Source: a virus
Lineage: Duplodnaviria > Caudoviricetes
DNA length: 64,000 nucleotides
Direction: 5' to 3' (one strand)
Virus record (IMG/VR): IMGVR_UViG_3300023119_000004
Below the pieces are notes generated by a model, which saw only the letters and a list, made by a program, of their open reading frames with translations, searched no databases and was not told the origin of the DNA. Numbering within the stretch: the first letter of the stretch is position 1; each line of letters opens with the position of its first letter. Of this stretch, positions 3,818 to 19,426 are shown piece after piece. A program made the translations under genes and the position numbers.

Positions 3818-4450
3818 TTAGTCAATTTGACGCTTTGAGATCGCTAAGTACCACATATCTAAGGGATATTGTTTGCTTTTAAAGTGTGTAATAATTTCTA
3901 AGCCGTTATCATCTATCATATCTTGGAATGTTTTAGGACTAGAACCCCATACATTTTCAGCCAATATGATTAATCCGTCATCAGTTAGATAGTTGTTAAC
4001 ATTATCAAAAAAATCTCTATGTATTGCCCAATCAGTATCCTTGTATTTCCTTGGTTCGTTGTAGTGTTCTACATACGGATCGTGATTAAAATGAGGAGGA
4101 TTTGCAACAATTAGGTCAAATTTCTGCTCTGGAATTTTTTGAAAATTATGACTGTAAATAAACTTTGCTTTTGCTTCAAAACTATTTTCTCTAATAGTTT
4201 TATTGATGCAATAACTGTTGTTTAATTCTACATCACTAAGTGTTAGTTTTTCAGTTTGTAAAGATGCAAGTAATCCAAACCCCCAATAGCCTGGACCACT
4301 ACACCATTCTAGTGTATTTTTAAACTGTCTATTATTGCTAATATGATTAGTCGCGTCAAGAAAGTCATCGACCATTGTGTTTCCACAACCGTCTAATTCG
4401 TCAGTCCAAAAGATAGTTGTGTCGAAATATTTGACTTCCTTATAATCCAT
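3818..4450 (-). CDS. Class I SAM-dependent methyltransferase (MTS/HemK-like, NPPx motif)
   Basis: Motif I LEWCSGPGYWG and motif IV FDLIVANPPHF. Confidence 0.85.
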   Translation of the reverse strand: MDYKEVKYFDTTIFWTDELDGCGNTMVDDFLDATNHISNNRQFKNTLEWCSGPGYWGFGLLASLQTEKLTLSDVELNNSYCINKTIRENSFEAKAKFIYSHNFQKIPEQKFDLIVANPPHFNHDPYVEHYNEPRKYKDTDWAIHRDFFDNVNNYLTDDGLIILAENVWGSSPKTFQDMIDDNGLEIITHFKSKQYPLDMWYLAISKRQID

Positions 4451-4454
4451 TCCA

Positions 4455-6257
4455 TTAGTTCTTTAGTGTAATTAATTTACCGTATTCTGGTAGATACAAG
4501 TATTCGATATCACTGTGTGCTAATGTACGAATTGCATCATCTAATGTTTCTACTAATGGTTCACCGCCTAGATTAAATGAAGTATTAAACACCATAGGAA
4601 TACCGGTTTCTTTTTTCCATTCTTTAATGAATCTATAGTAAAGTGGATTTTGTTTTTCATTTACGGTTTGAATTCTACAAGTTCCGTCTACATGAATAAT
4701 AGCAGGAATTTTCTTTTCAATGCCTGGCTGGCAATTTACAGCATACATCATTGTAGGCGAACTTTTCATACCACGTAAGTCAAACCACTCATGTACATCT
4801 TCTTCTAAGATACTACCTGCAAACGGGCGGAAATATTCTCGACGCTTAACAGTATTAACGTGATCCTTTCCGTTTGGATCGCTTGGATCGTACATAATAG
4901 TTCTATTACCTAATGCTCTTGGACCATTCTCTGAACGTCCTTGATGCATTACAACAATATTTCTATCTTTTAATAGTGCAACAGCATCTTTATCACTTGC
5001 ATCTGTTACAGTTGCATTATATTTTTCGGCAGTATTTTCAATTTCTTCTTGTGAATAAAAATATTCCGGTCCTTCGTATAATGTATCAACTTGTGGATTA
5101 ACTTTATTGCTTTTAGTTAATTTTCTATGCCAGTACATTGCGGCACCCATTGCTGTGCCTGCATCATTTGATACTGGTTCAACATAAATTTCAATGTCTT
5201 GATCTTTTAGTGCATCAAGGTAATGATAGTTAGCAACACAGTTTAATCCGTATCCTCCGGAAATAACAACTTTGTTTTTTCCTGACATTTCAACTGCTTT
5301 TTTAATTAAGCGTACAACTTGTTCTTGTGTTTGTGTTTGAATAGCATACGCCATGTCTCTTCTATTTTTTAATTTAGTAACATCGTCATCTGAGTGATCA
5401 GTTAAAAACGGAAACATATTGTAATTAACGTGAGCACCGTTAGGATATGTTGGTACAATTAATTCTCTATCGGAAATAGGATGTAGTGTGTCCTCTCTAA
5501 AAATTTTAGGACACTCTACATTGGGCCCACCATATGGGAATAACCCCATAGTTTTTCCTGCTTCAATAAAACTAAAACCACAGTACTCAGTTACTGCTTC
5601 GTATGCTTTAACAATACCTGCATTTTCAGTTAGGAAAAGTTCGTGTGTATTTTCTTTAGGTTCGTCATACATTTCGCTAGTAAATTCTGGCATCCAAGAA
5701 CCTGTTAAAGGTCCATTTGTTCCTAGGTGTTTGTATAATGTTTTAAAGTTATCTGGATAGTTACAATCAAAAATACTTTCAGTTTCCCAAACAGTTGTTT
5801 GTTGATTGCCAATGTTTAAATCAATAAATGTTCCTGCACCGTCAACAATAACACCAACTGCTTCGTCAAACCCTGAGCGATAAAAAGCACAAGCCGCGTG
5901 TAACTTGTGATGAATATGACTTAGGTCGATAACTTGTGGGTGCGGATTTCCATTAAACGGCTGTCTTTTAATTAAACCTAGTTTACGTGCAAGACCAGTA
6001 TAAACATCGTCTCCGCTAAAATCAATTTTACCCGCTGTATATTGTAAATTTTGTGTATGTGCTACAATAAGAAAATCTAATTCATCTGTGTACTCAAGAA
6101 TTTTCAACATTGTGGCAAATGGGCCGCCATCGTATTTGTGTCTTGTTAGACGCTCTTCTTCAAGTGCAAATACTACTTCACCGTCCTTTAGTAGACAAAC
6201 ACCTCCGTTATGTCCTCTAGCAATACCTGCAATCCAAACCGGTTTTTTATCCGCCAT
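4455..6257 (-). CDS. O-carbamoyltransferase, NodU/CmcH/TobZ family
   Basis: 600 aa; HNGGVC, EEERLTRHK, HHKLHA, VDGAG, GRSENGPRALGNR, KRREYFRPFA, HVDGTCRIQTV and FNTSFN motifs. Confidence 0.93.
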   Translation of the reverse strand: MADKKPVWIAGIARGHNGGVCLLKDGEVVFALEEERLTRHKYDGGPFATMLKILEYTDELDFLIVAHTQNLQYTAGKIDFSGDDVYTGLARKLGLIKRQPFNGNPHPQVIDLSHIHHKLHAACAFYRSGFDEAVGVIVDGAGTFIDLNIGNQQTTVWETESIFDCNYPDNFKTLYKHLGTNGPLTGSWMPEFTSEMYDEPKENTHELFLTENAGIVKAYEAVTEYCGFSFIEAGKTMGLFPYGGPNVECPKIFREDTLHPISDRELIVPTYPNGAHVNYNMFPFLTDHSDDDVTKLKNRRDMAYAIQTQTQEQVVRLIKKAVEMSGKNKVVISGGYGLNCVANYHYLDALKDQDIEIYVEPVSNDAGTAMGAAMYWHRKLTKSNKVNPQVDTLYEGPEYFYSQEEIENTAEKYNATVTDASDKDAVALLKDRNIVVMHQGRSENGPRALGNRTIMYDPSDPNGKDHVNTVKRREYFRPFAGSILEEDVHEWFDLRGMKSSPTMMYAVNCQPGIEKKIPAIIHVDGTCRIQTVNEKQNPLYYRFIKEWKKETGIPMVFNTSFNLGGEPLVETLDDAIRTLAHSDIEYLYLPEYGKLITLKN

Positions 6258-6259
6258 AT

Positions 6260-7087
6260 TTAATATCCTCGATAATTTCGATCCCAGCCTTCAAGTTGAA
6301 GATTGGTAATGTTTTTAATTGTTTCTTTGTAGTCATCAGTTTTAACATTGTTAATACTATCTATCATATATTCTTGATGTTGATTTAAGTTGTGGCTTAA
6401 ATTGTCCATTACCCAATTTAAATGTTGTATTGGACTAGGGTGTAGTTCTATCCATTTTTCATTATTCTTATTAGTAAACCACCAACTATAATCTTTTCTA
6501 TACCACGCATATAATCCAATTGGTTCTAACCAATAATCTTCGTCAAAGATATATTTGTAATCTTGTAGTTCGTATTCGTCCCAGGCATTTGCAAGTTCTG
6601 GTGTATTACGTAAATTTTCACCATGACCTGCTTGATGTGGTATATCTGTGCCTAGTGTTTCTAACTTATTAATACTTGTAAACAGAAAATTGCATCCAGT
6701 TGATTTTAATAATCCTGCTGTTAGTAAAATACTGTTAAGTGTACTTAGGAAATATGCCTTTTCATCAAAGAATTTATCATGCCAGTCTTTGTTAAAAGTT
6801 TCAGTGTTTTGATAACTGAACAAACTTCCTTTAGTTTGCCAAGTTTCTTCTTTGTCAAAACGCATATAGTCATGTCTTAGATAACTTGACCATTGTACTA
6901 TTACTGTATCGTCTTTGGTAAAGTTATTTTTTAAATTACATTCAGCAACACGTTCTGCAATAGCACGATTGCCTAACCCTGCATGACCCCAGTTTTCATA
7001 ATAGTTAAAATTATGTGCGTAGAAGTCTGCCCAAGTAGGCCAATTCCATGATGTATATGAACAGCCAAAGGCAAATAGTCTAGACAT
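6260..7087 (-). CDS. Hypothetical protein, SGNH/GDSL-like fold (possible acyl-transferase/esterase)
   Basis: N-terminal FAFGCSYT, G.GN motif and C-terminal HPS..QH, typical of phage SGNH-like proteins. Confidence 0.55.
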   Translation of the reverse strand: MSRLFAFGCSYTSWNWPTWADFYAHNFNYYENWGHAGLGNRAIAERVAECNLKNNFTKDDTVIVQWSSYLRHDYMRFDKEETWQTKGSLFSYQNTETFNKDWHDKFFDEKAYFLSTLNSILLTAGLLKSTGCNFLFTSINKLETLGTDIPHQAGHGENLRNTPELANAWDEYELQDYKYIFDEDYWLEPIGLYAWYRKDYSWWFTNKNNEKWIELHPSPIQHLNWVMDNLSHNLNQHQEYMIDSINNVKTDDYKETIKNITNLQLEGWDRNYRGY

Positions 7088-8067
7088 TATTCTTCTGTAA
7101 AGCGGTTTCCTACTTTAGCCTTACCCTTAATACCATTCATTACTGATTCAACAACAATATCTTCAATCTTATCATTCATTGCCATGATACCGTCATTAAT
7201 TCTGTCTGACCATTCATCTGTAGTAACTCTAATTGGTGAATAAACTCTTGCACCTTGACCCATATCAAGAATATCCATGTTTTTATCTTCAGGATATGAA
7301 ACATTAATAGGGAATGTAGAGCCAATAACAACTGTGCCTTTTAATCCTAATGCGTGTACAATGTGCTGTCCAACACTATCACAACCTAAGAAATAATCTG
7401 CCGCTTGAATAATACCTGCCCATTGTCTTAGGTTTGCACCCATTGGACTTGCTACAGGATTTTTAATACCGTGTTTTGAAAAGTCAATACCAAACTCTGC
7501 CATATGTATAACGCCAACTTTATGAGATAATTTTTTAACAATGTTGACAGAATTTTCTGCTTCAAAACTTCTTCCACTCCAATCAGAGATCATTCCGTTT
7601 TCATGCATAACTGCTCTACCGAATGGTTGGAAAACAACAATTTTATCTTTGCCTGTTTTTTCTTTTACTTCGTCGATTAACTTTTTACCGAACATTAATT
7701 CTTCTCTTGAAAGTTTAAGTTCTGGTTTTTTAATTTTTCTTAGTCCTTTACCGTTAATTGCAATGTCGTAGGCTTCAGCAATGCTACACTTTTGATTGTA
7801 GTATTCCCAAACCCTATACGGTTCTGGAGTAACTAAATTCATGTTAACTAGTTTTTCTTGGAATAAGTTCTTATGCCAATGATCATATGCTTTTGCATGA
7901 AGTAAAGGATGTCCTTTATAAAAGTCTGTGCCACCTTCACATACAATTATAAAATTATCATCGGGATTTTCTTCTGCAAAGGTTAATAGAGCCGGAATAC
8001 TAGCAAGTACTCGTCCTGCACCACCATTAATAAAGATGGCAGTATCTCGTTTGGTTTGTTCTGTCAT
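7087..8067 (-). CDS. Glycosyltransferase, GT9 (heptosyltransferase)-like GT-B fold
   Basis: GGAGRV near the N-terminus, VVFQPFG, and ADYFLGCDSVGQHIVHALG matching the GT9 D..IG.DSG..H.A.ALG signature. Confidence 0.75.
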   Translation of the reverse strand: MTEQTKRDTAIFINGGAGRVLASIPALLTFAEENPDDNFIIVCEGGTDFYKGHPLLHAKAYDHWHKNLFQEKLVNMNLVTPEPYRVWEYYNQKCSIAEAYDIAINGKGLRKIKKPELKLSREELMFGKKLIDEVKEKTGKDKIVVFQPFGRAVMHENGMISDWSGRSFEAENSVNIVKKLSHKVGVIHMAEFGIDFSKHGIKNPVASPMGANLRQWAGIIQAADYFLGCDSVGQHIVHALGLKGTVVIGSTFPINVSYPEDKNMDILDMGQGARVYSPIRVTTDEWSDRINDGIMAMNDKIEDIVVESVMNGIKGKAKVGNRFTEE

Positions 8068-8120
8068 TAAATTATCCTTTTACAAAGTTGCGTTTGTAAA
8101 GATATTTAATGTAAAACTAA

Positions 8121-9518
8121 TTAGGAAGATTGTTTTCTGGCTGTAATACGTCCAGCAACTCTAGTGTTACCGTGTACATCTGTTGGCGCCGCTGGCAACC
8201 CGTCAACAATACCATCATCAAAAGGTGTTCCGTCTGTACTTAAACCTAATCTAGCAAGGTCTTCAGCAAAGTAGTTACCGCCTTTTTCTGGTGGAATAAA
8301 GTGGAAAGTTGCTGGGTGATATGTATGTTCCATTAACCAACCATCTGATGGATCTGCCCATTGTGCCGCGTCAGTTCCTGAACCATCTGCTAATGATCCA
8401 ACTGCCGCTCCATATCGTCCAAATGGTCCTGGGAATTGATCTGCTTCACCCCAAATACCTGGGTATTTTGCTTTTGGTGATTGTGGAAATCTTACTTTCC
8501 ATGGATCAATACGTACTACTTTTGAAAGTGTGAATGTTGCCGCACTACCGTCACCTGTATATTCAACAGTAGGACTTACAACAGTTTTTGCTTCTTTAAT
8601 GTGTCTAGCATTAAAAGCATTTCTTGTTCTTACACCAGTAATAGCACCGTCTGTATCAACTGATGTAACAATAATGTTTACGTTTAAATTGTCAATTTCA
8701 TCAACAACAGAAGTTAATGCACTTGGATCTGCTTCAAAATCAAATCCTGGTCTTGTTCCCATTGGTGCTGATAAATCATCTAATGCACCAACATCACTAG
8801 CACTAAATCCTAGTTCTTCTGCTGGAACAACTAATACATCATCTACAGCATATCCAGTGCCACCGTCAGTGATTTCTACTGTCCAAGCCGCGCCGTATGT
8901 TGCTGGTAAATCTCTTAATTTTTGTCTAAAATCAATCCATTCTTGTTTAACAGCATCTGGCATATCTGGTGACACGTGACCGTCTGCCGCTGATAGTTGA
9001 GACCAACGTACTTTTTTAATTGCTTCCCAATCAGTGTGTGGTTTAATAAACGGAAAAGGTGTATTCCATTCCTGTGCAACTGGATCGTAAGTAATTTCAT
9101 CTCTGTCGTATGTATGGTCTGGAGTAGGAACTTCAGGCTCATAGTGAACAAACGGATTACCTTGGTAATCATTCATTGGAAGTGTTTCTGATTTAATTGC
9201 ACGACCTTCTAAGAAAACTGTATCTTGGTCTGTTTCCATTAATTCACAAAGTAGAGGATTGTCTTCGCAATTAACTTTTACCATATACTCGTGTGCCGCA
9301 GGAACAAAATCATCTTCAACTTCGTACCAGTACTTAACTTCTCCAGTACGTTTGTTATCAGATTTACGTAGGAATACCCACATTTCTCTTGGACCTTCGT
9401 ATGTCCATGTTCCTACTTTACCTTCGTTTGTAGTTTGGTAAAGATATGCATCAGGCATATCATAAGAGAACTGAACGTTAATTTCATCTCTTTTGTTATT
9501 TGCGTTTGGATCTCTCAT
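8121..9518 (-). CDS. Tail fibre assembly chaperone-like protein (long form with inserted fibre module)
   Basis: WEAIKKVR...WIDFRQKLRDLP chaperone signature; paralogous to 11138..11830. Confidence 0.75.
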   Translation of the reverse strand: MRDPNANNKRDEINVQFSYDMPDAYLYQTTNEGKVGTWTYEGPREMWVFLRKSDNKRTGEVKYWYEVEDDFVPAAHEYMVKVNCEDNPLLCELMETDQDTVFLEGRAIKSETLPMNDYQGNPFVHYEPEVPTPDHTYDRDEITYDPVAQEWNTPFPFIKPHTDWEAIKKVRWSQLSAADGHVSPDMPDAVKQEWIDFRQKLRDLPATYGAAWTVEITDGGTGYAVDDVLVVPAEELGFSASDVGALDDLSAPMGTRPGFDFEADPSALTSVVDEIDNLNVNIIVTSVDTDGAITGVRTRNAFNARHIKEAKTVVSPTVEYTGDGSAATFTLSKVVRIDPWKVRFPQSPKAKYPGIWGEADQFPGPFGRYGAAVGSLADGSGTDAAQWADPSDGWLMEHTYHPATFHFIPPEKGGNYFAEDLARLGLSTDGTPFDDGIVDGLPAAPTDVHGNTRVAGRITARKQSS

Positions 9519-9538
9519 CTTATGTTCCTATACCCCTA

Positions 9539-10345
9539 TTAATAATACACTACGTATACTGCGCCGCCTGCTCCAGGGGATCCACAACAACAGCCACCGC
9601 CATAAACTTGTCCATTTTCGCCACCGCCGCCTGGCCATGCGCCAAAGCCTTGACATTCACCACCTCTTGCACAACAACCGTTTGGACCAATTAATGGACC
9701 TGATTGTGCCATAGGTGCTACTGGTCTAAATGATAAACCTCTATCACCACAATGCTGTGATCTTTGTGCTGATCCTGTAAAGCCAGCAATACCAAAGTCA
9801 ACGTTGTTTGGTTGGTGTTGACAGTTATAACAACTCATACAACATCCATAACAACTAAAGTAACCATGACAGTGAGTACAGTTAGAACAACCGCCTCCAC
9901 AAGCAACAGCACAGAAACATGAACCACCTGTTGGTGTTCCAAATACGAAACTGTTGTGTCCGTTCATGTTATTTCCTGCGTATAAACAACAACCCGAACG
10001 TCCTGCACAGATTGTAAACTGATCTCCACCTGATACGTTAGTTGACTTAATAGCGTAACCGCCACCATCGCCTGGCATACCTTGCATACAGCAACATCCG
10101 CCTACGCCCGAAGCACCGCCGCCCCACATTTCAAATACTGCAAAAGTAGTACCTTGTGGAACTGTCCAACGGCAACACTTACCACCGTTGTTGTTACAAT
10201 AATATCTTGATTCTGGTGGAACACCGTGTGATTGTCTTGGCCACGCTTCATTGTGGTCCCAATTCCATTCATAACTTACTGTAAATGCTTGAGGTGATTT
10301 TACGCCTACGCTGTATCCTGGTAAAAAATCTCTTAAATTAGACAT
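9539..10345 (-). CDS. Cys/Gly-rich adhesin-like tail-fibre tip protein (paralog C)
   Basis: 268 aa, 27 Cys by hand count; FEMWGGGASG..GCCC and PGAGGAVYVVY glycine-rich-domain motifs. Confidence 0.7.
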   Translation of the reverse strand: MSNLRDFLPGYSVGVKSPQAFTVSYEWNWDHNEAWPRQSHGVPPESRYYCNNNGGKCCRWTVPQGTTFAVFEMWGGGASGVGGCCCMQGMPGDGGGYAIKSTNVSGGDQFTICAGRSGCCLYAGNNMNGHNSFVFGTPTGGSCFCAVACGGGCSNCTHCHGYFSCYGCCMSCYNCQHQPNNVDFGIAGFTGSAQRSQHCGDRGLSFRPVAPMAQSGPLIGPNGCCARGGECQGFGAWPGGGGENGQVYGGGCCCGSPGAGGAVYVVYY

Positions 10346-10354
10346 ACTATCTCC

Positions 10355-11125
10355 TTACCCTATATCCGATTGATAATACACAATTACTAGTCCACCTGCG
10401 CCAGGGCCACCACAGTAACAAGTTCCGTTGTGTGTATGGAGTGTTCCTCCGCCACCGCCTGGAAATTCTGCTGGTCCGTCTGCTTCTCTACCATGTGTTT
10501 TATAACAGTTATCACGTGTCATTCTAGCACCTGCTGATAACATTGGTCCTGCTGTCATGTTTTCCCATGATGAACTTGAACACATCGCTGTACCAGCACC
10601 ACCACCGTTTGTACCACAAACACTAAAGTCAGCACCTTTTACACATCCACACATTCTGTTTGGACATCCACAGTGACCGCCCCAAGCAGTACCAAAGCCA
10701 CAAGTTGCACAACCGTAGCCACCGCCTGATGCACATAAGCAAAAATATGCTCCTGAACAACAACCGTTACCAGAACAAGCATAACTACCACATCCTGGAC
10801 AACCCATAACAGGTCTACAACAACCTGCCGCGCCAGCACATAAAGTAAATGTTGCTCCGTTATTAACTTCTAAAATTTTTCTACCGTAAGAGCCTGATCC
10901 ACCTGGAAAGCCTGCCATACAACAACAGCCACCGCCGCCGTCTCCGCCTGCACCCCAAACTTCAAAAGCCGCCCATGTAACATCATCTGATGGATTCCAA
11001 GCACAACAACAACCACCGTTATTGTTACGAGTGGAATCAAAACTAGAGTGATATACGTAAATCGAACGTAATGCTAACGCTCCTGTTTCAGCCCCTAACT
11101 GTAATAATGATCTAAGTGCAGACAT
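10355..11125 (-). CDS. Cys/Gly-rich adhesin-like tail-fibre tip protein (paralog B)
   Basis: 256 aa, 27 Cys by hand count; NNGGCCC.W, FEVWGAGG...CCCM and PGAGGLVIVYY. Confidence 0.7.
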   Translation of the reverse strand: MSALRSLLQLGAETGALALRSIYVYHSSFDSTRNNNGGCCCAWNPSDDVTWAAFEVWGAGGDGGGGCCCMAGFPGGSGSYGRKILEVNNGATFTLCAGAAGCCRPVMGCPGCGSYACSGNGCCSGAYFCLCASGGGYGCATCGFGTAWGGHCGCPNRMCGCVKGADFSVCGTNGGGAGTAMCSSSSWENMTAGPMLSAGARMTRDNCYKTHGREADGPAEFPGGGGGTLHTHNGTCYCGGPGAGGLVIVYYQSDIG

Positions 11126-11137
11126 TCAATTTTCTCC

Positions 11138-11830
11138 TTAACCTATTCCCACGCCATCATCTGCTGGTGCATCTGCGTATCCACCTGCATCTGGTTCTTC
11201 TGGAAATTTAACTTGGTGTGCTGGATATTCTGAATCAGTTCCATGACCCCAAGTAGTTGGTAAATCTCTTAATTTTTGTCTAAAATCAATCCAAGGTTGT
11301 TTCACTGATGCTGGCATATCTTCTGCCACTCTGTGATCAGTTGAATCAAGTCTGTCGTTTCTTAGTTGGATCAAAGTTTCCCATGTTTGCCATGGTTGCT
11401 TCCAAGTAAGTGTCCAATCGCCTGTTCCTTCATCATGTGAACATAGGTTATATTCATATGCGTGATCTGGGTATGGTGGCCACGGAAACTCGTAATTACC
11501 ATATCCTTCTGGAAGTGCTACAACTTGATTAGTTTGTGTTAAAGTTACTGTGTGTGGCAAATAAATTGCACACATTAAAGTATCTTCACCTGCACAATCT
11601 AATTCTACTAAACGTTCGCCTTCTGCAACCGTGTCTGTACTTGGATTGTAAATAAAATCTTCATCCGGTGGAGTTTGATCTAGTGTGTTTCTACCAGTTT
11701 CTGCGTCAACAAACACATACAGTCTTTCTGGACCTGTATAAGTTGCTGTCGCTGTGTCCCCGTTACTATTTGTTTGAGCAAGATACGTGTCGGGGATATC
11801 GTACGTAAATTCTTTAGTTATTTCTGCCAT
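11138..11830 (-). CDS. Tail fibre assembly chaperone-like protein (short form)
   Basis: WETLIQLRNDRL..TD....DMP...WIDFRQKLRDLP signature. Confidence 0.8.
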   Translation of the reverse strand: MAEITKEFTYDIPDTYLAQTNSNGDTATATYTGPERLYVFVDAETGRNTLDQTPPDEDFIYNPSTDTVAEGERLVELDCAGEDTLMCAIYLPHTVTLTQTNQVVALPEGYGNYEFPWPPYPDHAYEYNLCSHDEGTGDWTLTWKQPWQTWETLIQLRNDRLDSTDHRVAEDMPASVKQPWIDFRQKLRDLPTTWGHGTDSEYPAHQVKFPEEPDAGGYADAPADDGVGIG

Positions 11831-11859
11831 TTTTGCATCCTTCTTTTGTATTTATCATG

Positions 11860-12600
11860 TTAACTATAAGTTACCTTAACCATGCCTCCTGATCCCCAAT
11901 GACCCCAACAACAGCCACCACCGCATGATGTTCCATTGTATCCGCCATGTGCTGGATAAGGTTGAGCACATCCCCATCCGCAACCTGAACACGTCATAGG
12001 CTTACCGCAATAATCTTTACCCTTACGTGTCTGTCCAGATTTTGGAGCGCCACCTACCATATCCCACATTTGATTGTGACAATAGTGAGTATGGAATGTT
12101 GATTGTCTGCCGTGTCCAATACGGAAATCACCTTGTGTTCCGCTTGTTAAAATAACACAGCCATAACAACAGTTGTATGCGTAGTGAGCATGACAGTTAG
12201 TTCTACCTGTACATCCTCCTCTGGCACAAGTTGTTGAAATACCACTGCCTGATACAAATGAAGTTGATCCATCATATCCTAAACAATCTCTTTCACAACA
12301 GTTACCATTACCTGCCGCACAAATTGTATATTGACAGCCTTCTGTAGTGTTTACTGTTCTAATTGAATAAGAACCACCGCCAGCGTTTTGAGAACTCCAC
12401 ATACAGCAACAAGCGCCAGCACCAGCGGCCCCTGCACCCCATAATTCAAATGTAACGTTAACTACGCCTTCAGGTACAGTCCACAAACAACAGCATCCGC
12501 CGTTGTTGATACCTCTATTGTTATTGTATACATAGAAGAACTTTGAAGGAACCGAAACTCCTTCTACCGTATCTCCTAGTAACGTTCTCAAGTCTGCCAT
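11860..12600 (-). CDS. Cys/Gly-rich adhesin-like tail-fibre tip protein (paralog A)
   Basis: 246 aa, 25 Cys by hand count; NNGGCCCLWTVP, FELWGAG...CCCM and GSGGMVKVTY. Confidence 0.7.
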   Translation of the reverse strand: MADLRTLLGDTVEGVSVPSKFFYVYNNNRGINNGGCCCLWTVPEGVVNVTFELWGAGAAGAGACCCMWSSQNAGGGSYSIRTVNTTEGCQYTICAAGNGNCCERDCLGYDGSTSFVSGSGISTTCARGGCTGRTNCHAHYAYNCCYGCVILTSGTQGDFRIGHGRQSTFHTHYCHNQMWDMVGGAPKSGQTRKGKDYCGKPMTCSGCGWGCAQPYPAHGGYNGTSCGGGCCWGHWGSGGMVKVTYS

Positions 12601-12615
12601 AATTAAATTCCTCTC

Positions 12616-12948
12616 TTACGTACCAGACATTACCCAACCAAAAGTTGGTCCAGTGTAAATCAGTGTTAAAGCGACGTTGTTAATATCTAAGACCAAATCT
12701 TCGTTTAGGTTCTGAATCTTTGAACCATTTCTGCTAACAGTTACGTTGTTTGTGTTAAACGAACCTGTAACATCAATGATTGAGATAACGTCATTTACAA
12801 TTAAACTAGCGTTTGCTGGTAAAGTAATAGTAAATGCACCTCCGGATGAATCGGCTAAGATTCTATCATTAACTGTCGCGGTAAATGTGCCATTAACATT
12901 ACGAATAACGCTACTAGCAGTACCAGTTGTTGATATATATCTTCCCAT
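12616..12948 (-). CDS. Small tail-fibre module protein resembling the T4 gp34 N-terminal repeat
   Basis: ADSSGGAFTITLP...D.ISIID..GSF.TNNVTV.RNGSKI...EDLVLD pattern. Confidence 0.6.
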   Translation of the reverse strand: MGRYISTTGTASSVIRNVNGTFTATVNDRILADSSGGAFTITLPANASLIVNDVISIIDVTGSFNTNNVTVSRNGSKIQNLNEDLVLDINNVALTLIYTGPTFGWVMSGT

Positions 12949-12983
12949 TTTATGTTTCCTTTATTACTATATTTATCGTTTCG

Positions 12984-13304
12984 TTACGCTGTTGATGTTT
13001 CAATACCCATTGCAACCGCACTAACGTTTGCGGCACTACTATATACTACAAGTATTTGCCCTGCCGCCATTGCAATACCTGATCTTTCTAGCACACCTTT
13101 TGGTAGTACCTCTACATCGTATTCGATGTATTCACTAAGTGCGGGTGTACCAGCAGAGGCTAACGCAACTCTTACGGAAATAGCACTATTTCCTCTATTA
13201 CATATCGATAACGTAACAATTCCAAATGTGTTAGCAGGTACCGTATATAAAGAAGTATTCGTGCCAGCCGATAAATCTGCGTGTCCTAATCTTCCTGTGG
13301 CCAT
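12984..13304 (-). CDS. Small virion structural protein (paralog of 25182..25511 and 29172..29504)
   Basis: Shared (Y/L)TVP...(C/A)N...E..(I/V)....G..(I/V)VV pattern; good RBS. Confidence 0.65.
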   Translation of the reverse strand: MATGRLGHADLSAGTNTSLYTVPANTFGIVTLSICNRGNSAISVRVALASAGTPALSEYIEYDVEVLPKGVLERSGIAMAAGQILVVYSSAANVSAVAMGIETSTA

Positions 13305-13321
13305 TTATTCTTCTCCTTTGT

Positions 13322-16300
13322 TTAACTCAATATAAACTGTTGCATTGCTACAGGAGAGCCACTAACTCCACCTGTAAAGTGCATTTGTGCAGTTGTATTT
13401 ATTAATACGCCTGTAGTTGTGGTAATTGTATTACCTTGGATATTAATAACACCTGCTGTCACAGTATTTACGTTCAATTCTGATGCGCCGCCACCAATTT
13501 GGGACGTAATATATGTCTTAATTGCTTTCTGCGTTGGCACAATCGAATCACTGTTTGCAGTAAATGTTCCGTCTGTACTAAATTCGTTAATTGTAGCACC
13601 CGCACCACCTAAAGCAACACTTCCTAATTGTAGTTCTTGTAGTCCAGAAATACTAAATGCATCAGCATTTAGGGTAGCAATACCTGTAGCCTGTTCAACT
13701 GTGAACAACTCACCAACTCTAAAGTTACCATCTTGGTCAGTTGATGTATAGAATACTCTACCACCACCGCCTTCGACTTGTTCATCATCTGGATCTGCTG
13801 GAACACTTGGAGTACCTGGATAGTTTGTTGTTGCAAAACCACCAGTACCTACATCTAGGAAATCGTGACCAGTCAATCTACATTGTGAATATCTAATACG
13901 CATTGATACAATATCACCGTGCTCTGGAGCCTCGTCTTTGGTCATTTCTGGTGAAATTTGTAGTAATGCTGAGTATGGTGATTGACCAGTTAAGTTAGTT
14001 ACACTAACAAGTTTAAACCATTTGTTTGGAATACTGTCAAACTCGACGTTTGCACCTGCTTGTGGAATAGAGTCCATACCCTCAACTTGGATATATTGCC
14101 CGTCTTGTTTTGCTTCTCTGTAACCTGCACCATATGTAATAGTACCAAATGCTAAGTAAGTTGAACCATTAGTTAAAACTGCTGGGAATAATAACTTACT
14201 ATCTTTGTAAAGTGCTAGTGTATTTGCGTCAACAACTTCTACATAGTAATCGTTACCATTAAGTTGTGTTGTACCTGTTACAGTTGCAATTGAAACTTTA
14301 GTTCTATCTAACAGTCCATGAGTTGCAACAGTAATTTTAACTGCACTTGTACCGCCGTTATTTGGAATAGTGTCAAGTCCATTTGTAATACACTCGTTAA
14401 CAATATCAATTAAGTCGCCTGCTTTAGTTACAGCCGCCGCTTCGCCATTGTTAGCATTTGTTGTTTGTGTTGTAACACTTGGACTTTGTAAACTTGTGTA
14501 AGAAGTGTTTGTTAAGATATAATTTATAACAATATCTCTCATCTGCTCATATGCCGCAAGTGCTTGTGATTGTCTTCCTGGTAATTGTGAGTTATTACCA
14601 ACCCAATAAGTTCTTGCGTGTAATCTGGTTTCTTTTGTACCACCAAATTTAATGTCATGTGCTAGTGCATCAACATAGTCGTCAACATTATCTTCCCACT
14701 TAGTTTTATCATAGTTGAAAGCCGCCCATAAACTTGGATTAGTTTGATTGGTAACTTCATTGTCAACCCATGCAATAACTTCGTCTTTAATAAACTCTTT
14801 GTTATCAATTAATAATGTATAAGCATTTGGATTTTCAGTAAATGAAACTCCTGTAATGTCTTGCTCATATCCTGAGTCAGCAATTGAAACTTGAACTGTT
14901 GTAAATCCTTCACCGCGTGATGCAAATGCTGGTTGACCTAATACACCATCGCCAATGTAAACTTCTAATGGAGCATCTGCTGTGTTGTTAGGATCAGTAA
15001 ATGTAATTGTTGGAGCCGCTACATATCCTGCACCTGGATGAATAATTCTTACTTCAGAAATTTGTCCATCTGTTACTTTTGCTCTACATAGTGCAGTTTG
15101 TGTTGTTGTAGATCCGTCACCTGCCGGAGCACTTACATTAACTCTTGGTTCAACACTATAAACTGTTGTGTTGTCTAGACTTGCTTCAATTGCTCTGCCT
15201 GAAATAATTTGATCCCAACCTGCTGTATCATCTGAATATTTTTTAATTGTAGCAACTTTAGTACCAGCGTTATATGTATCAATGTAACCATACTGTCCTG
15301 CACCTGTACCACCTGTTAAGAAAACAGCCATTCCAACGTATGCTGGACTTAGTGCTGTATCTGTGTTTGAAAGTGTAATCTGTGTAGTGTTACCTTCCTG
15401 CGGTGTGTTTGTAGCAGATCTATAATCTGCTCCACCGAATGTATTTTCGTCACCTGTTAATCTAACTTGGTAAACACCACCAGTATTAATTGTTGGTGTT
15501 AACCCAGTAATACCAAATCCGTCACCACTAAATGCGATTGTTGTGTTTGCTACTACATAGTCTCTACCTGCGTTTGCATATTCGATTGCAATAATTTCTT
15601 GGTTATCTGTAATACTATTTGTTACAACAGCATCAAATGCCCTGTTGTCAACAAATGCTTCAATTGCATTTTCAGTTAAGTCAACACCTTCAGCAACCGT
15701 ACCAAAGTCACCATATGATGAGTTACCGTTTGTAGCACGAATCTTACCGCCGTTTTCTGCTAGGTATCCCATGTGTGCATAGTATGAGAACACGGAAACA
15801 AGTTCTGCTCTACCTAAGTTAGTAACCCATGCACCAATACCTTCGGAAATTACTTGAGTAAAGTCGTTAGCAACGATAGAGTCATTACCGCCGTTGTGTA
15901 AATCACCGTCTACTTTAAGACCTACTGCACTTGTACCAAATGTTGTTACGTTTTGTACGTATGGTGAACGTGTAGTAATCCAAGCAGTTTCATCATCTGG
16001 TCCCCAACTTGGGTTAAGTGAAGTGTAAGCACCTGCTGTTGGACGTTTTGTTCCATAACTGTTTGCAGAACCTAGTGTACCTGATAGTCCTTTTAGTGTA
16101 CAGTTTCTTAATCCTGTACCGTTTTCTAAATAGAACATATCTTCTGTTGTCGAACCGTTAACAGCATTTGAGAACCAACGGCCATTTAGTACTGATCTGT
16201 AGTTACCGTATTCTTCCATATCCCAAAGGACAGCAAGAATATACTGTTTCATGTCTCTTTTACATTTTGCATCATCAGTAAGATCGTAATCGCCTGTATT

Positions 16301-19300
16301 ATTTGCTTTAATGTATTCTACTGCTTCGTCAACAATAAAGTCTAAGTTAAGTAAAAGTCTACCACGTGCATCTGTGTGGCCGTCATCTTGTCTGCGACCA
16401 ACTTGTCCGCTTACAACTACATCGCTACCATTACCATTGACTTCAAAATCAATCTTGTCAATAATATTTTGAATTAGATTTTGTGCTGTAGTTACCGCCG
16501 CGGCATCACCTGCTGGCTCGTATGTATTTTGTGTATTTGTATTACCTGGTGCAATAGACGCAACATCCATTGTAAAGTTAGGGGCACCGCCGCCACCTAG
16601 ATCTGAATCTTGAATTGTAATAATATCATTTACAAGATGTCCTGAACCACCAGTAACAACATCAACATTAGTTACAGATCCATTTCCGTCAACTGTAATG
16701 TTAAATGTACCAACTGTACCAGTACCACTTGTTGATCCGCTTACACCGTTGTACGTACCTGCAGATCTCAAAGCGTCTGCCGCTCCAAAACTGTCAACAG
16801 TTAAGTGTGCACCTGCTGGTGTTTTAGTAACACTATTGTTATTAATGATGTCTGAAATAATTGCTTTAATTCTTCCTAGTGCAGTAATTGTTAATTCTGC
16901 ATCAGTTACACTTGTGTATCCTGAACCCGCCGCAGTAATTTCTGTTGAACGTAGTTCGTCACCAACAATAGCAACATCTGCTGGAACCGGAATAGGTAGC
17001 ATTTCGTTGTATTGACCAGTTTTAACAAACAATGTAACATTTGGTTTGTTTGCTGTTGGTAGGTTAGTTAGGTTACCGTCAGTGATTGTAACTGTAACAA
17101 TACTTGCTAGTGATGTAATATTAGCATGAACATCTGCTTCTGCTTCTAGTGATACATCTTTAAACTGTGTAACCGGTGATGCTACACTATTAAGTGTTGC
17201 ATAGTTTGTAACTGGATCCAATGAAGCAAGAATGTTTTCCATAATTGCAACACCATGATCAATTGCCGCTTTGGTTTCGTCTTCTTGGTTAGCAACATAG
17301 TTTACTGCACCATTAATATACTTGCTTGCCGCTTCTCTTGATCTAATGTTTCCGCCGTGTTTTAAATCCCAAACAATAGCGTCAACTAAAAGACCCATGT
17401 CTCTACGACATTTTGCTTTGTTGTATGTAAATGAACTTGTAAACGGATCTACGTTATTTGTAATATTGTAGTCAACAAATTCAACAATTTGTTCTTGAAT
17501 AAATGCTCTGTTTCTTAAAAGTAGTGAAGCCGCATTTGGGTTACGTGGACCTTGTCTAATTTGATCACACGCCCATCTTACAGAGCCCCACGGCTTGTCA
17601 ACTGTAACACCGTTTGCTGGTGCTTCGTTATCTGTTCCACCTGGACCAACATAATAAATTTGATCTAATTGACCAAAGTATGCCCATTCCGGAGCATTAC
17701 CTGCCGCGTTTACTTTTAATACTTGACCTGCTTTACCAATTGGAAGTCTAGTAGGACCTGAACCACCGTAGTAAACTAAATCACCAATAGTAGTTAAGTT
17801 ACCTGACTCAACACCACCACTTAGTAAATTCCAATAGTCACCGTTTGTATCTTGATCTGGTCTGTTTTGTACAGCAACTTCGTCTGATGTATGTGCTTGT
17901 ACACAAATATAAGTATTATTGTTATTGATTCCTCTAACAGCATCGCCTAAATCATAATAAGTTGCATCTGTCCAAGATTCTTTCCATTCAATACCTTGAT
18001 TTAATCTATCCCAGTAACTTACATCAGGTGGTCTGTTGCCTGTAGAGTTTGCTATACATAGATAAGTGTAACCACCAACTCTAACAACATCACCAACTTT
18101 ATATGCTGTTGCATTGTTATAGTCACCTTGTAAACTAAATCCTGTTGTAAATAAATCCCATGTCCCTGGATTACCAAATGGAACAACGTTAGTGTTATTA
18201 TTGTTTGCAACATATGAATAACCACCGTATGTTACAAAGTCACCAATTTGATATTGTGTTGAAGAATTCCACGAATCTTCAAATTCTAATCCTGGTAAAA
18301 ATTCTTGCCATTGTGTTACGTTACCAATTGTAGCAACATCAAATGTAAGTGCTAAACCAGTTCCGCCAATTTCACTTGCTTGTACTGTAATTGTATCATC
18401 AACTGCATGACCTGAACCACCTTTAACAACAGTTACAGTTGCCGCACCTTGGTCGTCAATTGAAATATTAAATCTTTGTCCTGTACCACTACCTGCTGAA
18501 GTACCTGCAATATCTCTATATGTTCCAGCAGTTCTATCTGTATCTGCCGCACTAATCTCATCAATACTTTCGATAGCCTGTGTTAATGTGATATCGTCAT
18601 TTAAATTAGTAGCACCTGATGTATGTTCGTTTGTACAAATCCAAAGTCCGCCGCCATACTTAACAACGTCATTAACTTTATAACGTGTTGCTGTTGCATG
18701 AACTGAAAGGTATTCAATACCTTTGTGTACATAATCCCATTTAGATTGATCTGCTTCAAGACCTAATGCATCTGTTGTTGCTGAATTGTGTCCTTCATTA
18801 CAAATATAAAGTTGACCACCATACTTAACAACATCGCCTACTTTGTATCGTGTGTCTGCTGACCAGTCTGTTTTCCAGTCCATGCCTCTTGAGAAAATAT
18901 CCCACTTGGATTGGTCTGCTTCTAATCCATCGCTGTCAGTATTGTTTGTTAATGAAGAAGTATGTGCCGCATTACAAATATATAAATTGCCGCCGTACTT
19001 AACAATGTCGTTAACTTTGTAAACTGTTGAAATTGTCCAGTTGTTTTTCCATGCAAATCCTTCAGAAAATAAATCCCATTTTGCTTGATCTGTTTCTAGT
19101 ATACCTGCAATACCTGCACCTTGTGCATCGTCTGCTTCTGAAGTGTGTGCTGTGTTACAAACATATAAGTATCCGCCGTACTTAACTAGGTCATTTTGTT
19201 TGTAATAGTTTCCGGAAGTCCAAGCACCTTGCCACTGAATACCATCAGTAAACAAGTTCCATTTTGTTGATTCGTCTGTAGCAAAGTCTGCAGATGACGT

Positions 19301-19426
19301 ATGTCCATTAGCACAGAAGTAAACTCTACCGCCGTGTCTTACAATGTCGTCTTTAAAGTATACGATGTTAGATGCCCACGCACCTTTCCATACAAATCTA
19401 ATTCTACCTAGTTTAAACTCTGCCAT
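13322..19426 (-). CDS. Giant tail fibre/tailspike-like protein: 8 N-terminal CBM5/12-like repeats, beta-helix-like core
   Basis: 2034 aa; W..W....Y...D.V.YGG..Y.C...HTS repeats; VAIVGDELRST / GLRNCTLKGL / SPYVQNVTT core; C-terminus paralogous to 19463..24784. Confidence 0.8.
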   Translation of the reverse strand: MAEFKLGRIRFVWKGAWASNIVYFKDDIVRHGGRVYFCANGHTSSADFATDESTKWNLFTDGIQWQGAWTSGNYYKQNDLVKYGGYLYVCNTAHTSEADDAQGAGIAGILETDQAKWDLFSEGFAWKNNWTISTVYKVNDIVKYGGNLYICNAAHTSSLTNNTDSDGLEADQSKWDIFSRGMDWKTDWSADTRYKVGDVVKYGGQLYICNEGHNSATTDALGLEADQSKWDYVHKGIEYLSVHATATRYKVNDVVKYGGGLWICTNEHTSGATNLNDDITLTQAIESIDEISAADTDRTAGTYRDIAGTSAGSGTGQRFNISIDDQGAATVTVVKGGSGHAVDDTITVQASEIGGTGLALTFDVATIGNVTQWQEFLPGLEFEDSWNSSTQYQIGDFVTYGGYSYVANNNNTNVVPFGNPGTWDLFTTGFSLQGDYNNATAYKVGDVVRVGGYTYLCIANSTGNRPPDVSYWDRLNQGIEWKESWTDATYYDLGDAVRGINNNNTYICVQAHTSDEVAVQNRPDQDTNGDYWNLLSGGVESGNLTTIGDLVYYGGSGPTRLPIGKAGQVLKVNAAGNAPEWAYFGQLDQIYYVGPGGTDNEAPANGVTVDKPWGSVRWACDQIRQGPRNPNAASLLLRNRAFIQEQIVEFVDYNITNNVDPFTSSFTYNKAKCRRDMGLLVDAIVWDLKHGGNIRSREAASKYINGAVNYVANQEDETKAAIDHGVAIMENILASLDPVTNYATLNSVASPVTQFKDVSLEAEADVHANITSLASIVTVTITDGNLTNLPTANKPNVTLFVKTGQYNEMLPIPVPADVAIVGDELRSTEITAAGSGYTSVTDAELTITALGRIKAIISDIINNNSVTKTPAGAHLTVDSFGAADALRSAGTYNGVSGSTSGTGTVGTFNITVDGNGSVTNVDVVTGGSGHLVNDIITIQDSDLGGGGAPNFTMDVASIAPGNTNTQNTYEPAGDAAAVTTAQNLIQNIIDKIDFEVNGNGSDVVVSGQVGRRQDDGHTDARGRLLLNLDFIVDEAVEYIKANNTGDYDLTDDAKCKRDMKQYILAVLWDMEEYGNYRSVLNGRWFSNAVNGSTTEDMFYLENGTGLRNCTLKGLSGTLGSANSYGTKRPTAGAYTSLNPSWGPDDETAWITTRSPYVQNVTTFGTSAVGLKVDGDLHNGGNDSIVANDFTQVISEGIGAWVTNLGRAELVSVFSYYAHMGYLAENGGKIRATNGNSSYGDFGTVAEGVDLTENAIEAFVDNRAFDAVVTNSITDNQEIIAIEYANAGRDYVVANTTIAFSGDGFGITGLTPTINTGGVYQVRLTGDENTFGGADYRSATNTPQEGNTTQITLSNTDTALSPAYVGMAVFLTGGTGAGQYGYIDTYNAGTKVATIKKYSDDTAGWDQIISGRAIEASLDNTTVYSVEPRVNVSAPAGDGSTTTQTALCRAKVTDGQISEVRIIHPGAGYVAAPTITFTDPNNTADAPLEVYIGDGVLGQPAFASRGEGFTTVQVSIADSGYEQDITGVSFTENPNAYTLLIDNKEFIKDEVIAWVDNEVTNQTNPSLWAAFNYDKTKWEDNVDDYVDALAHDIKFGGTKETRLHARTYWVGNNSQLPGRQSQALAAYEQMRDIVINYILTNTSYTSLQSPSVTTQTTNANNGEAAAVTKAGDLIDIVNECITNGLDTIPNNGGTSAVKITVATHGLLDRTKVSIATVTGTTQLNGNDYYVEVVDANTLALYKDSKLLFPAVLTNGSTYLAFGTITYGAGYREAKQDGQYIQVEGMDSIPQAGANVEFDSIPNKWFKLVSVTNLTGQSPYSALLQISPEMTKDEAPEHGDIVSMRIRYSQCRLTGHDFLDVGTGGFATTNYPGTPSVPADPDDEQVEGGGGRVFYTSTDQDGNFRVGELFTVEQATGIATLNADAFSISGLQELQLGSVALGGAGATINEFSTDGTFTANSDSIVPTQKAIKTYITSQIGGGASELNVNTVTAGVINIQGNTITTTTGVLINTTAQMHFTGGVSGSPVAMQQFILS

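Follow-up and report, generated by a model that had tools for sequence, protein, structure and literature searches.

The window considered here is a 64,000-nucleotide stretch of the IMG/VR record IMGVR_UViG_3300023119_000004, a 184,930-bp sequence from an uncultured T4-like phage with a completeness estimate of ~51%. Within it lie three cysteine-rich open reading frames (ORFs), designated p1, p2, and p3, all on the minus strand. These probably (at a rough probability of 0.6) encode three paralogous, stand-alone head domains of the distal fibre apparatus of a T4-like phage, which would trimerise, dock, and be stapled by their cysteines in the manner proposed below. The three ORFs are as follows:

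11860–12600, minus strand: putative head protein p1, 246 amino acids (aa), 25 Cys (10.2%), Gly 18.7%; match to phrog_4205 at E 1.4e-31
10355–11125, minus strand: putative head protein p2, 256 aa, 27 Cys (10.5%), Gly 22.3%; match to phrog_4205 at E 1.6e-16
9539–10345, minus strand: putative head protein p3, 268 aa, 27 Cys (10.1%), Gly 20.5%; match to phrog_4205 at E 5.4e-23

A preliminary description of this region, made from the letters alone, had reported three such ORFs of 246, 256, and 268 aa with 25, 27, and 27 cysteines; they are present as described, and both the sizes and the counts are exact. Each protein carries two CCC triplets. The density of cysteine is approximately tenfold over the window background, which is 0.89% when all ORFs of at least 150 aa are pooled (the next plausible gene has 1.4%), and is therefore not a matter of chance. 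The paralogues are 33–37% identical, p2 and p3 sharing 33 and 37% of their residues with p1, respectively. In a three-way alignment, 13 of the 43 Cys columns are common to all three proteins, and the same alignment contains every common motif that the description had listed, namely an N-terminal M-(A/S)-x-L-R, NNGG-(C/K)-CC-x-W, FE-x-WG, a second CCC-M, and a C-terminal G-x-GG-x-V-x-V-x-Y, together with the divergent central part.

The three genes are the sole copies of their family in the 184,930-bp record, about half of the genome. Their nearest cultured relatives with homologues are Synechococcus phage S-SSM7 and Prochlorococcus phage P-SSM2, in which the genes are annotated as “hypothetical protein.” The phage is a marine T4-like virus akin to cyanophages, its host being judged solely from these relatives. 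Megablast of window positions 8000–13400 against 50,697 phage records returned zero matches, and tblastn gave partial matches only, in S-SSM7, S-SSM6a, Sf-FS3, P-SSM2, P-SSM5, and two single-cell marine viruses. The T4 late-promoter consensus TATAAATA is absent near the gene module that contains p1–p3.

Predicted fold, family, and assembly state

An AlphaFold2 (AF2) model of p1, calculated with 71 homologues in the alignment, has a predicted local distance difference test score (pLDDT) of 77.8 and a predicted template modelling score (pTM) of 0.79. Comparison of this model with representatives of the solved structures by VIA-align gave the following:

Cyanophage Pam3 fibre protein gp24 (7ypx_A): Z 17.5, root-mean-square deviation (rmsd) 2.8 Å over 190 residues, residues 18–246 of the model lying on residues 77–275 of the chain
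Bxb1 tail-tip chain Q (9d93): Z 12.6, rmsd 3.3 Å over 167 residues
ALK glycine-rich domains: Z 8.4–9.8, the best 3.6 Å over 147 residues (7nx3_A)
Next, unrelated structure: Z 4.8, 4.2 Å over 89 residues

Foldseek, run against the PDB, ranks the same families in the same order, and in BFVD and AFDB most examples of the fold form the C-terminal end of a tail fibre, a minor tail protein, or a collagen-like protein of a giant virus. According to the predicted model, p1-type heads are a TNF-like β-sandwich with a glycine-rich domain, i.e., the PF21722 or “TG” fold. Eleven glycines (G55, G57, G58, G60, G62, G128, G129, G132, G233, G236, and G239) are conserved at 90% or above and are compatible with a polyglycine-II lattice. 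Only ~18 residues, with a single short helix (residues 4–7), precede the fold in p1. The preliminary description had read the three proteins as glycine-rich adhesins, and much of this reading has stood: they are of the fibre-head type, their genes share a fibre module with chaperone genes, and the fold predicted for them, rather than being unrelated to adhesins, belongs to known fibre and tail-tip heads. One part to be corrected is the comparison with T-even gp38, as the structure prediction and Foldseek comparison proposed there lead to Pam3 gp24 as the nearest solved relative, followed by Bxb1 and ALK.

The family assignment by sequence is indirect. In a search of Pfam-A with hmmscan, p2 matches PF21722 (Gly_rich_2) with 23.2 bits (E 8.1e-5), just under the cut-off of 24.3, while p1 and p3 have no PF21722 match at E ≤ 1. 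PF21722 is, in turn, matched by 42 of the 71 aligned homologues at E ≤ 0.01 (best 3e-11), and many of them carry precomputed PF21722 matches. Because the head proteins are linked to the family through these intermediate homologues, they can be regarded as a divergent PF21722 branch. Their PHROG matches are phrog_4205 (all three) and phrog_35878, neither of which has an assigned function. Among PDB sequences, a profile search brought up no meaningful relative, its best match (E 1.1) being an unrelated isomerase, and no description of the head family was found in the searchable literature on PF21722, cysteine-rich cyanophage fibres, and polyglycine-II.

Richness in cysteine extends through the family. 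All 112 homologues from a word-indexed search have 6–12% Cys, and an exhaustive profile search of cluster representatives found 1614 at E ≤ 1e-3, 363 at E ≤ 1e-10, and 84 at E ≤ 1e-30, the best 150 of which are nearly all Cys-rich. The Atlas clusters of the family are 100% viral. The N-terminus varies in type between lineages: a short M-x-x-L-R in the window, M-A-x-Y-x-S-Y-K-K in S-SSM7, and helical forms of ~350 aa in P-SSM2 (proteins 304 and 306) and in clusters P0143 and P0161. The two P-SSM2 homologues (356 and 355 aa, at positions 8740–9810 and 10539–11606 of locus L005) have 36 Cys each, and begin with ~100 additional aa that are helical and rich in Ala and Glu, after which comes a Gly run, giving a three-part architecture like that of Pam3 gp24.

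When three copies of p1 are modelled together, the predicted homotrimer scores 0.59, the best control scoring 0.00. Among proteins of known assembly state, that mark is attained by 20 of the 30 whose structures are pairs and by 1 of the 23 whose structures are single chains. Separate trimer runs have at least 21% of their contacts in common, with a partner pLDDT of at least 66. However, since the trimer of Pam3 gp24 has already been solved, the score may reflect likeness to that structure only. The confident part of the interface (residues 20–29, 82, 158–164, 181–196, and 213–218) contains no cysteine, which predicts that the cysteines act inside a single chain.

The cysteine framework and the set of three genes

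Twelve alignment columns are Cys in at least 80% of the family, corresponding to positions 37, 38, 64, 66, 94, 102, 106, 125, 136, 174, 198, and 230 of p1. Six of these (Cys 37, 38, 64, 94, 125, and 136) are located in predicted β-strands of the sandwich, and most conserved cysteines flank glycine runs. Within each orthologue group, 12–14 Cys columns are conserved at 90% or above and a further 21–29 are variable, for a total of 19–30 Cys per protein. Among close orthologues (75–97% identical; the pairs are not independent), Cys is conserved at 99.4%, Gly at 93.8%, and Trp at 93.7%. In the young trios of S-SSM7 and locus L009, 26–27 of the 32–34 Cys columns are common to the copies, while the first ~40 residues and the loop region diverge. 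Given such high conservation of the framework among orthologues and young trios, the comparison of sequences argues clearly that the cysteines are functional and form a conserved framework beneath variable loops, and indicates that purifying selection acts more strongly on cysteine, with its content of ~10%, than on any other residue. A lack of conservation among homologues had been named in advance as a weakness to look for; Cys is instead the most conserved residue. The loop variation that had been proposed is likewise found in the recently duplicated trios of related phages, where the loops vary and the Cys framework is kept. Covariation between cysteines was tried as a source of disulfide pairs, with raw phi values of 0.74 for C64–C198 and 0.70 for C145–C226. 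It was set aside as unusable and underpowered, because only 2–8 independent changes occur on the tree and the sign tests give p ≥ 0.5.

A scan of IMG/VR yielded 428 confirmed stretches with the family, the best 80 loci of which were analysed for gene order. The first arrangement, found in 62 of the 80 loci, runs giant CBM_5_12-repeat fibre, 106-aa protein, 110-aa protein, head, chaperone, head, head, chaperone, and phrog_8954 protein, and usually continues with an SGNH-like protein and then a carbamoyltransferase. In the second arrangement, found in the remaining 18, the order is head, head, head, chaperone, phrog_8954 protein, and carbamoyltransferase. The succession of giant fibre, 106-aa protein, 110-aa adaptor, and heads with one or more PF16778 chaperones is kept in the 80 loci as well as in S-SSM7 and P-SSM2. 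Every locus that is bounded on both sides (76 of 76) has exactly three head genes. P-SSM2 is the exception, with two copies of the long form.

In a tree of 57 proteins, the heads cluster by position in the locus and not by phage, a pattern that is repeated within sub-lineages and in the second arrangement. Support for the groups is 100/99 for p3 (11 rows), 91/87 for p1, and 88/69 for p2; the position labels require 5 changes on this tree as compared to 27.4 when shuffled. The N-terminal peptides of the heads are also position-specific. It follows from the grouping by position that the triplication is old and that all three copies have been retained. A tree of 14 proteins, with lineage-specific duplications in S-SSM7, L009, and P-SSM2, had suggested recent independent expansions as the general picture; this was dropped because the larger tree showed position-specific orthology within each arrangement type. 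Collectively, the data point to the three copies as co-retained, non-redundant parts and not as interchangeable alternatives. The proposal in the preliminary description that the proteins are alternative receptor-binding tips fits poorly with the constant number of three and with the position-specific orthologue groups.

The fibre module, its proposed assembly, and competing explanations

The head genes of the window are embedded in the following minus-strand genes:

13322–19426, minus strand: giant fibre protein that leads the module, 2034 aa; PF02839 in seven stretches, E 6.3e-40
12984–13304, minus strand: small fibre-associated protein (“connector 1”), 106 aa; phrog_11338 tail fiber protein, E 2.2e-11
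12616–12948, minus strand: free-standing adaptor-fold protein, 110 aa; AF2 pLDDT 86.4
11138–11830, minus strand: fibre-assembly chaperone 1, 230 aa; PF16778 with 30.5 bits (cut-off 26.6); phrog_4912 tail fiber assembly
8121–9518, minus strand: fibre-assembly chaperone 2, 465 aa; PF16778 (Phage_tail_APC) with 27.5 bits (cut-off 26.6)
7087–8067, minus strand: phrog_8954 protein, 326 aa; phrog_8954 at E 1.2e-138, without a Pfam match
4455–6257, minus strand: carbamoyltransferase, 600 aa; PF16861 and PF02543

A giant ORF homologous to the 2034-aa fibre protein precedes the trio in nearly all related loci. The window also encodes a second giant fibre protein of 1773 aa (19463–24784, minus strand), which has five N-terminal CBM_5_12-like repeats, as compared to seven in the 2034-aa protein. 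The 106-aa “connector 1” is kept at the same position in 62 of the 80 loci. The model of the 110-aa protein superimposes on the N-terminal domain of CBA120 TSP4 (7rfv_A, residues 50–177) with Z 16.1 and an rmsd of 2.2 over 108 residues, and Foldseek matches it to T4 gp10 (5iv5_AC, E 1.3e-5) and T4 gp9 (1qex, 5.6e-4). In loci of the head-head-head type, the ORF that matches this adaptor is longer (~166–170 aa). Domains of the TSP4 and T4 gp10 type are branching points at which other fibres or spikes dock, and for this reason the 110-aa protein may be the docking platform of the heads, whose N-terminal peptides would bind to it or to the fibre end.

The two chaperones interleaved with the heads had already been recognised as such from the letters alone; both match PF16778 above the cut-off, and both also match PHROG tail-fibre-assembly families. 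They are 34% identical (E 2e-30), the paralogy being confined to the N-terminal 210 aa of chaperone 2. The C-terminal extension of chaperone 2 (~250 aa) is missing from chaperone 1 and has no family match. A 77-nucleotide stretch with a long perfect core occurs in both chaperone genes (8899–8975 and 11253–11329, 83% identity). It covers the conserved W-I-D-F-R-Q-K-L-R-D-L-P motif and flanks p2 and p3, and it could serve as a route for recombination or cassette exchange. After the head and chaperone block, window positions 3818–8067 (minus strand) hold the phrog_8954 protein, a 275-aa protein without a Pfam or PHROG match, the carbamoyltransferase, and a small methyltransferase. The phrog_8954 protein follows the trio in nearly all related loci as well as in S-SSM7 and P-SSM2. 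The carbamoyltransferase adjoins the module in S-SSM7, P-SSM2, the loci L007–L009, and the majority of the 80 IMG/VR loci. In some cases it is encoded on the other strand, and the phrog_8954 protein can be inverted as well.

In the proposed explanation, each head would consist of a TNF-like β-sandwich bearing a glycine-rich lattice of the polyglycine-II type, and would trimerise via the TNF-like domain with the aid of the PF16778 chaperones. A short, position-specific N-terminal peptide of ~18 residues would dock the head on the fibre end or on the 110-aa adaptor, leaving the variable loops, at about residues 140–215 of p1, as a predicted receptor-binding face directed toward the host. The ~12–14 conserved cysteines in or beside the β-strands, flanking the glycine runs, may act as a structural staple for the sandwich and the lattice, and a further 10–15 would shift position in the loops. 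The staple would most likely consist of disulfides formed once the particle exits the reducing cytoplasm, metal-thiolate sites being less likely; post-release disulfides are favoured because disulfides do form in released virions of the cyanophage Pam3 (PMC9942802).

Several observations weigh against this explanation. The long helical domain through which Pam3 gp24 docks at its N-terminus has no counterpart in the heads of the window. The family is missing from S-SM1, Syn9, and S-PM2, phages with virion proteomes compiled in PMC3037559. A “receptor-binding protein” detected in virions of S-SCSM2R (ORF45; PMC12801897) was considered as a family member and rejected, as it is a 2214-aa fibre protein of another family. 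With respect to the cysteines, odd counts (45) are about as frequent as even ones (49), a parity that is uninformative on its own, and where close orthologues differ at a Cys, the difference is mostly a single Cys/Tyr exchange; taken together, these imply that some cysteines lie outside any intrachain disulfide. The Cys-rich loops are also the least confident parts of the model, with pLDDT below 50 at residues 141–147 and 199–210. The 185-kb record yielded no sulfhydryl oxidase (Erv1/ALR), DsbA, or thioredoxin, a negative that says little given that the record is ~51% complete and that the Erv1 search matched in no control genome. Lastly, a 5418-aa relative, P0242, has seven matches to the head profile at 0.2% Cys, and the head fold therefore needs no cysteine. 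In P0242, the head fold is used as a Cys-poor repeat inside a giant protein.

The alternatives concern the chemistry of the cysteines, the composition of the trimer, and the location of the proteins. The serious rival to disulfides is that the cysteines, with some His, coordinate Zn, Fe, or Cu in thiolate sites that are already built in the cytoplasm, which would make the heads metalloproteins with metal-shaped loops. Although we rate it as rather unlikely, it has the advantage that the heads fold in a reducing cytoplasm, in which disulfides cannot guide folding, and T4 fibre proteins offer a precedent, as gp37 and gp12 hold Fe and Zn. CC, CxC, and CxxC spacings with neighbouring His are found in the variable loops, one family column alternates between Cys (74%), His (13%), and Tyr (10%), Cys counts are often odd and change by single residues, and the ~51%-complete record yielded no phage thiol oxidase. 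On the other hand, the family has no conserved His column and no conserved spacing of the classical Zn-ribbon or Fe-S kind, the most conserved Cys are in β-strands of the sandwich and not in loop knuckles, and the Pam3 virions demonstrate that disulfides form upon release. That the heads are not virion parts at all, but intracellular assembly or modification factors, or else substrates of the neighbouring enzymes (the phrog_8954 protein, the SGNH-like protein, the carbamoyltransferase, and the methyltransferase), appears very improbable. The enzyme genes do constantly adjoin the trio. However, every known instance of the fold is an exposed fibre or tail-tip head or an extracellular receptor domain, the head genes stand with fibre chaperone genes immediately behind those for a giant fibre and a gp10-type adaptor, and the enzyme block is on the opposite strand in some loci.

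A different composition of the trimer is conceivable as well, in which p1, p2, and p3 would assemble 1:1:1 into one heterotrimeric head that displays three sets of loops. The C1q A, B, and C chains assemble via TNF-like domains, and a heterotrimer would account for a gene number fixed at three, a number that holds in all bounded loci across lineages down to ~36% identity. The position-specific orthologue groups and N-terminal signatures, the packing of the co-oriented head genes into one tight block, the 18 loci in which a single chaperone serves all three heads, and the fact that the predicted trimerisation of the TNF-like domain uses motifs conserved in all three paralogues all agree with it. 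We nevertheless consider it improbable, in that P-SSM2 has only two copies, these being of the long form with a helical N-terminus, the p1 homotrimer alone already scores well, and a chaperone gene parts p1 from p2 and p3 in the window, which suggests two assembly units. A yet more elaborate and more doubtful version holds that the trio forms one asymmetric, C1q-like heterotrimeric receptor-binding head on the gp10-type adaptor, with a network of ~75 Cys thiols as a redox- or metal-responsive lock. If so, the lock would be in a reduced or metal-loaded form while the particle assembles in the cytoplasm of the cyanobacterium, and would become cross-linked in oxic seawater, and the stability or infectivity of the particle would depend on the ambient redox or metal state.

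Significance and comparison with known systems

To our knowledge, no receptor-binding protein of a marine T4-like cyanophage has been solved, and host recognition by these phages is poorly understood. The head family provides a concrete receptor-binding candidate, and one that is abundant in ocean viromes, with 428 IMG/VR stretches and at least 84 clusters at E ≤ 1e-30. Three of its features are without a description that we could find for the PF21722/Pam3/ALK fold: a Cys content of ~10%, an invariant three-gene set, and a free-standing gp10-type adaptor nearby. A protein so rich in cysteine, synthesised in the cytoplasm and probably active outside the cell, also raises a testable question about the chemical maturation of particles after lysis, and the cultured carriers S-SSM7 and P-SSM2 make such tests feasible.

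Among solved proteins, gp24 of Pam3, a trimer and the proposed host recogniser of that phage (PMC9942802; PDB 7YPX, 7YFW), is the best structural match of the p1 model, with which it shares the TNF-like domain and probably the glycine-rich lattice. However, its sequence is only ~20% identical to the heads and is missed by the profile search of PDB sequences. Moreover, gp24 docks on the baseplate wedge via a helical N-terminal domain of ~75 residues, as compared to ~18 residues in the heads, and a single functional cysteine (Cys28) has been reported for it (PMC9942802), in contrast to the 25–27 of the window proteins. Pam3 also has one fibre gene, whereas the window has a fixed trio. The polyglycine-rich tail-tip proteins of Bxb1 (9D93 chains Q; cited in PMC13252515) resemble the heads in being stand-alone proteins of ~230 aa with the same fold, and they attach to the central fibre of the tail tip. 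Bxb1 is, on the other hand, a siphophage of a Gram-positive-type host with no known trio and no reported Cys enrichment, and the sequences, at 16–19% identity, are unrelated. The TG domain of ALK and LTK (PDB 7NX3, 7LS0, 7LRZ) has the same supradomain architecture over 142–147 residues; it belongs to a cytokine-binding receptor kinase of animals and has only the fold in common with the heads.

The gp38 adhesins of the T-even phages and S16 resemble the heads in other respects: they are small and glycine-rich, are encoded after the distal fibre gene, dock by the N-terminus, and have variable loops between glycine motifs. By analogy, gp38 holds as a working model for the probable function of the heads, but not for their family. 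The analogy is limited to function because T-even gp38 is not among the matches listed by Foldseek against the PDB or by VIA-align, an absence that does not exclude a shared fold, and because the gp38 Pfam family is matched by none of p1–p3 (hmmscan of Pfam-A, E ≤ 1). In addition, gp38 is a monomer that caps the gp37 trimer, without a known TNF-like domain or Cys enrichment. For the adaptor, the known counterparts are CBA120 TSP4 and T4 gp10, in which the domain is part of a long spike or wedge protein, whereas in the window it is a free-standing protein of 110 aa.

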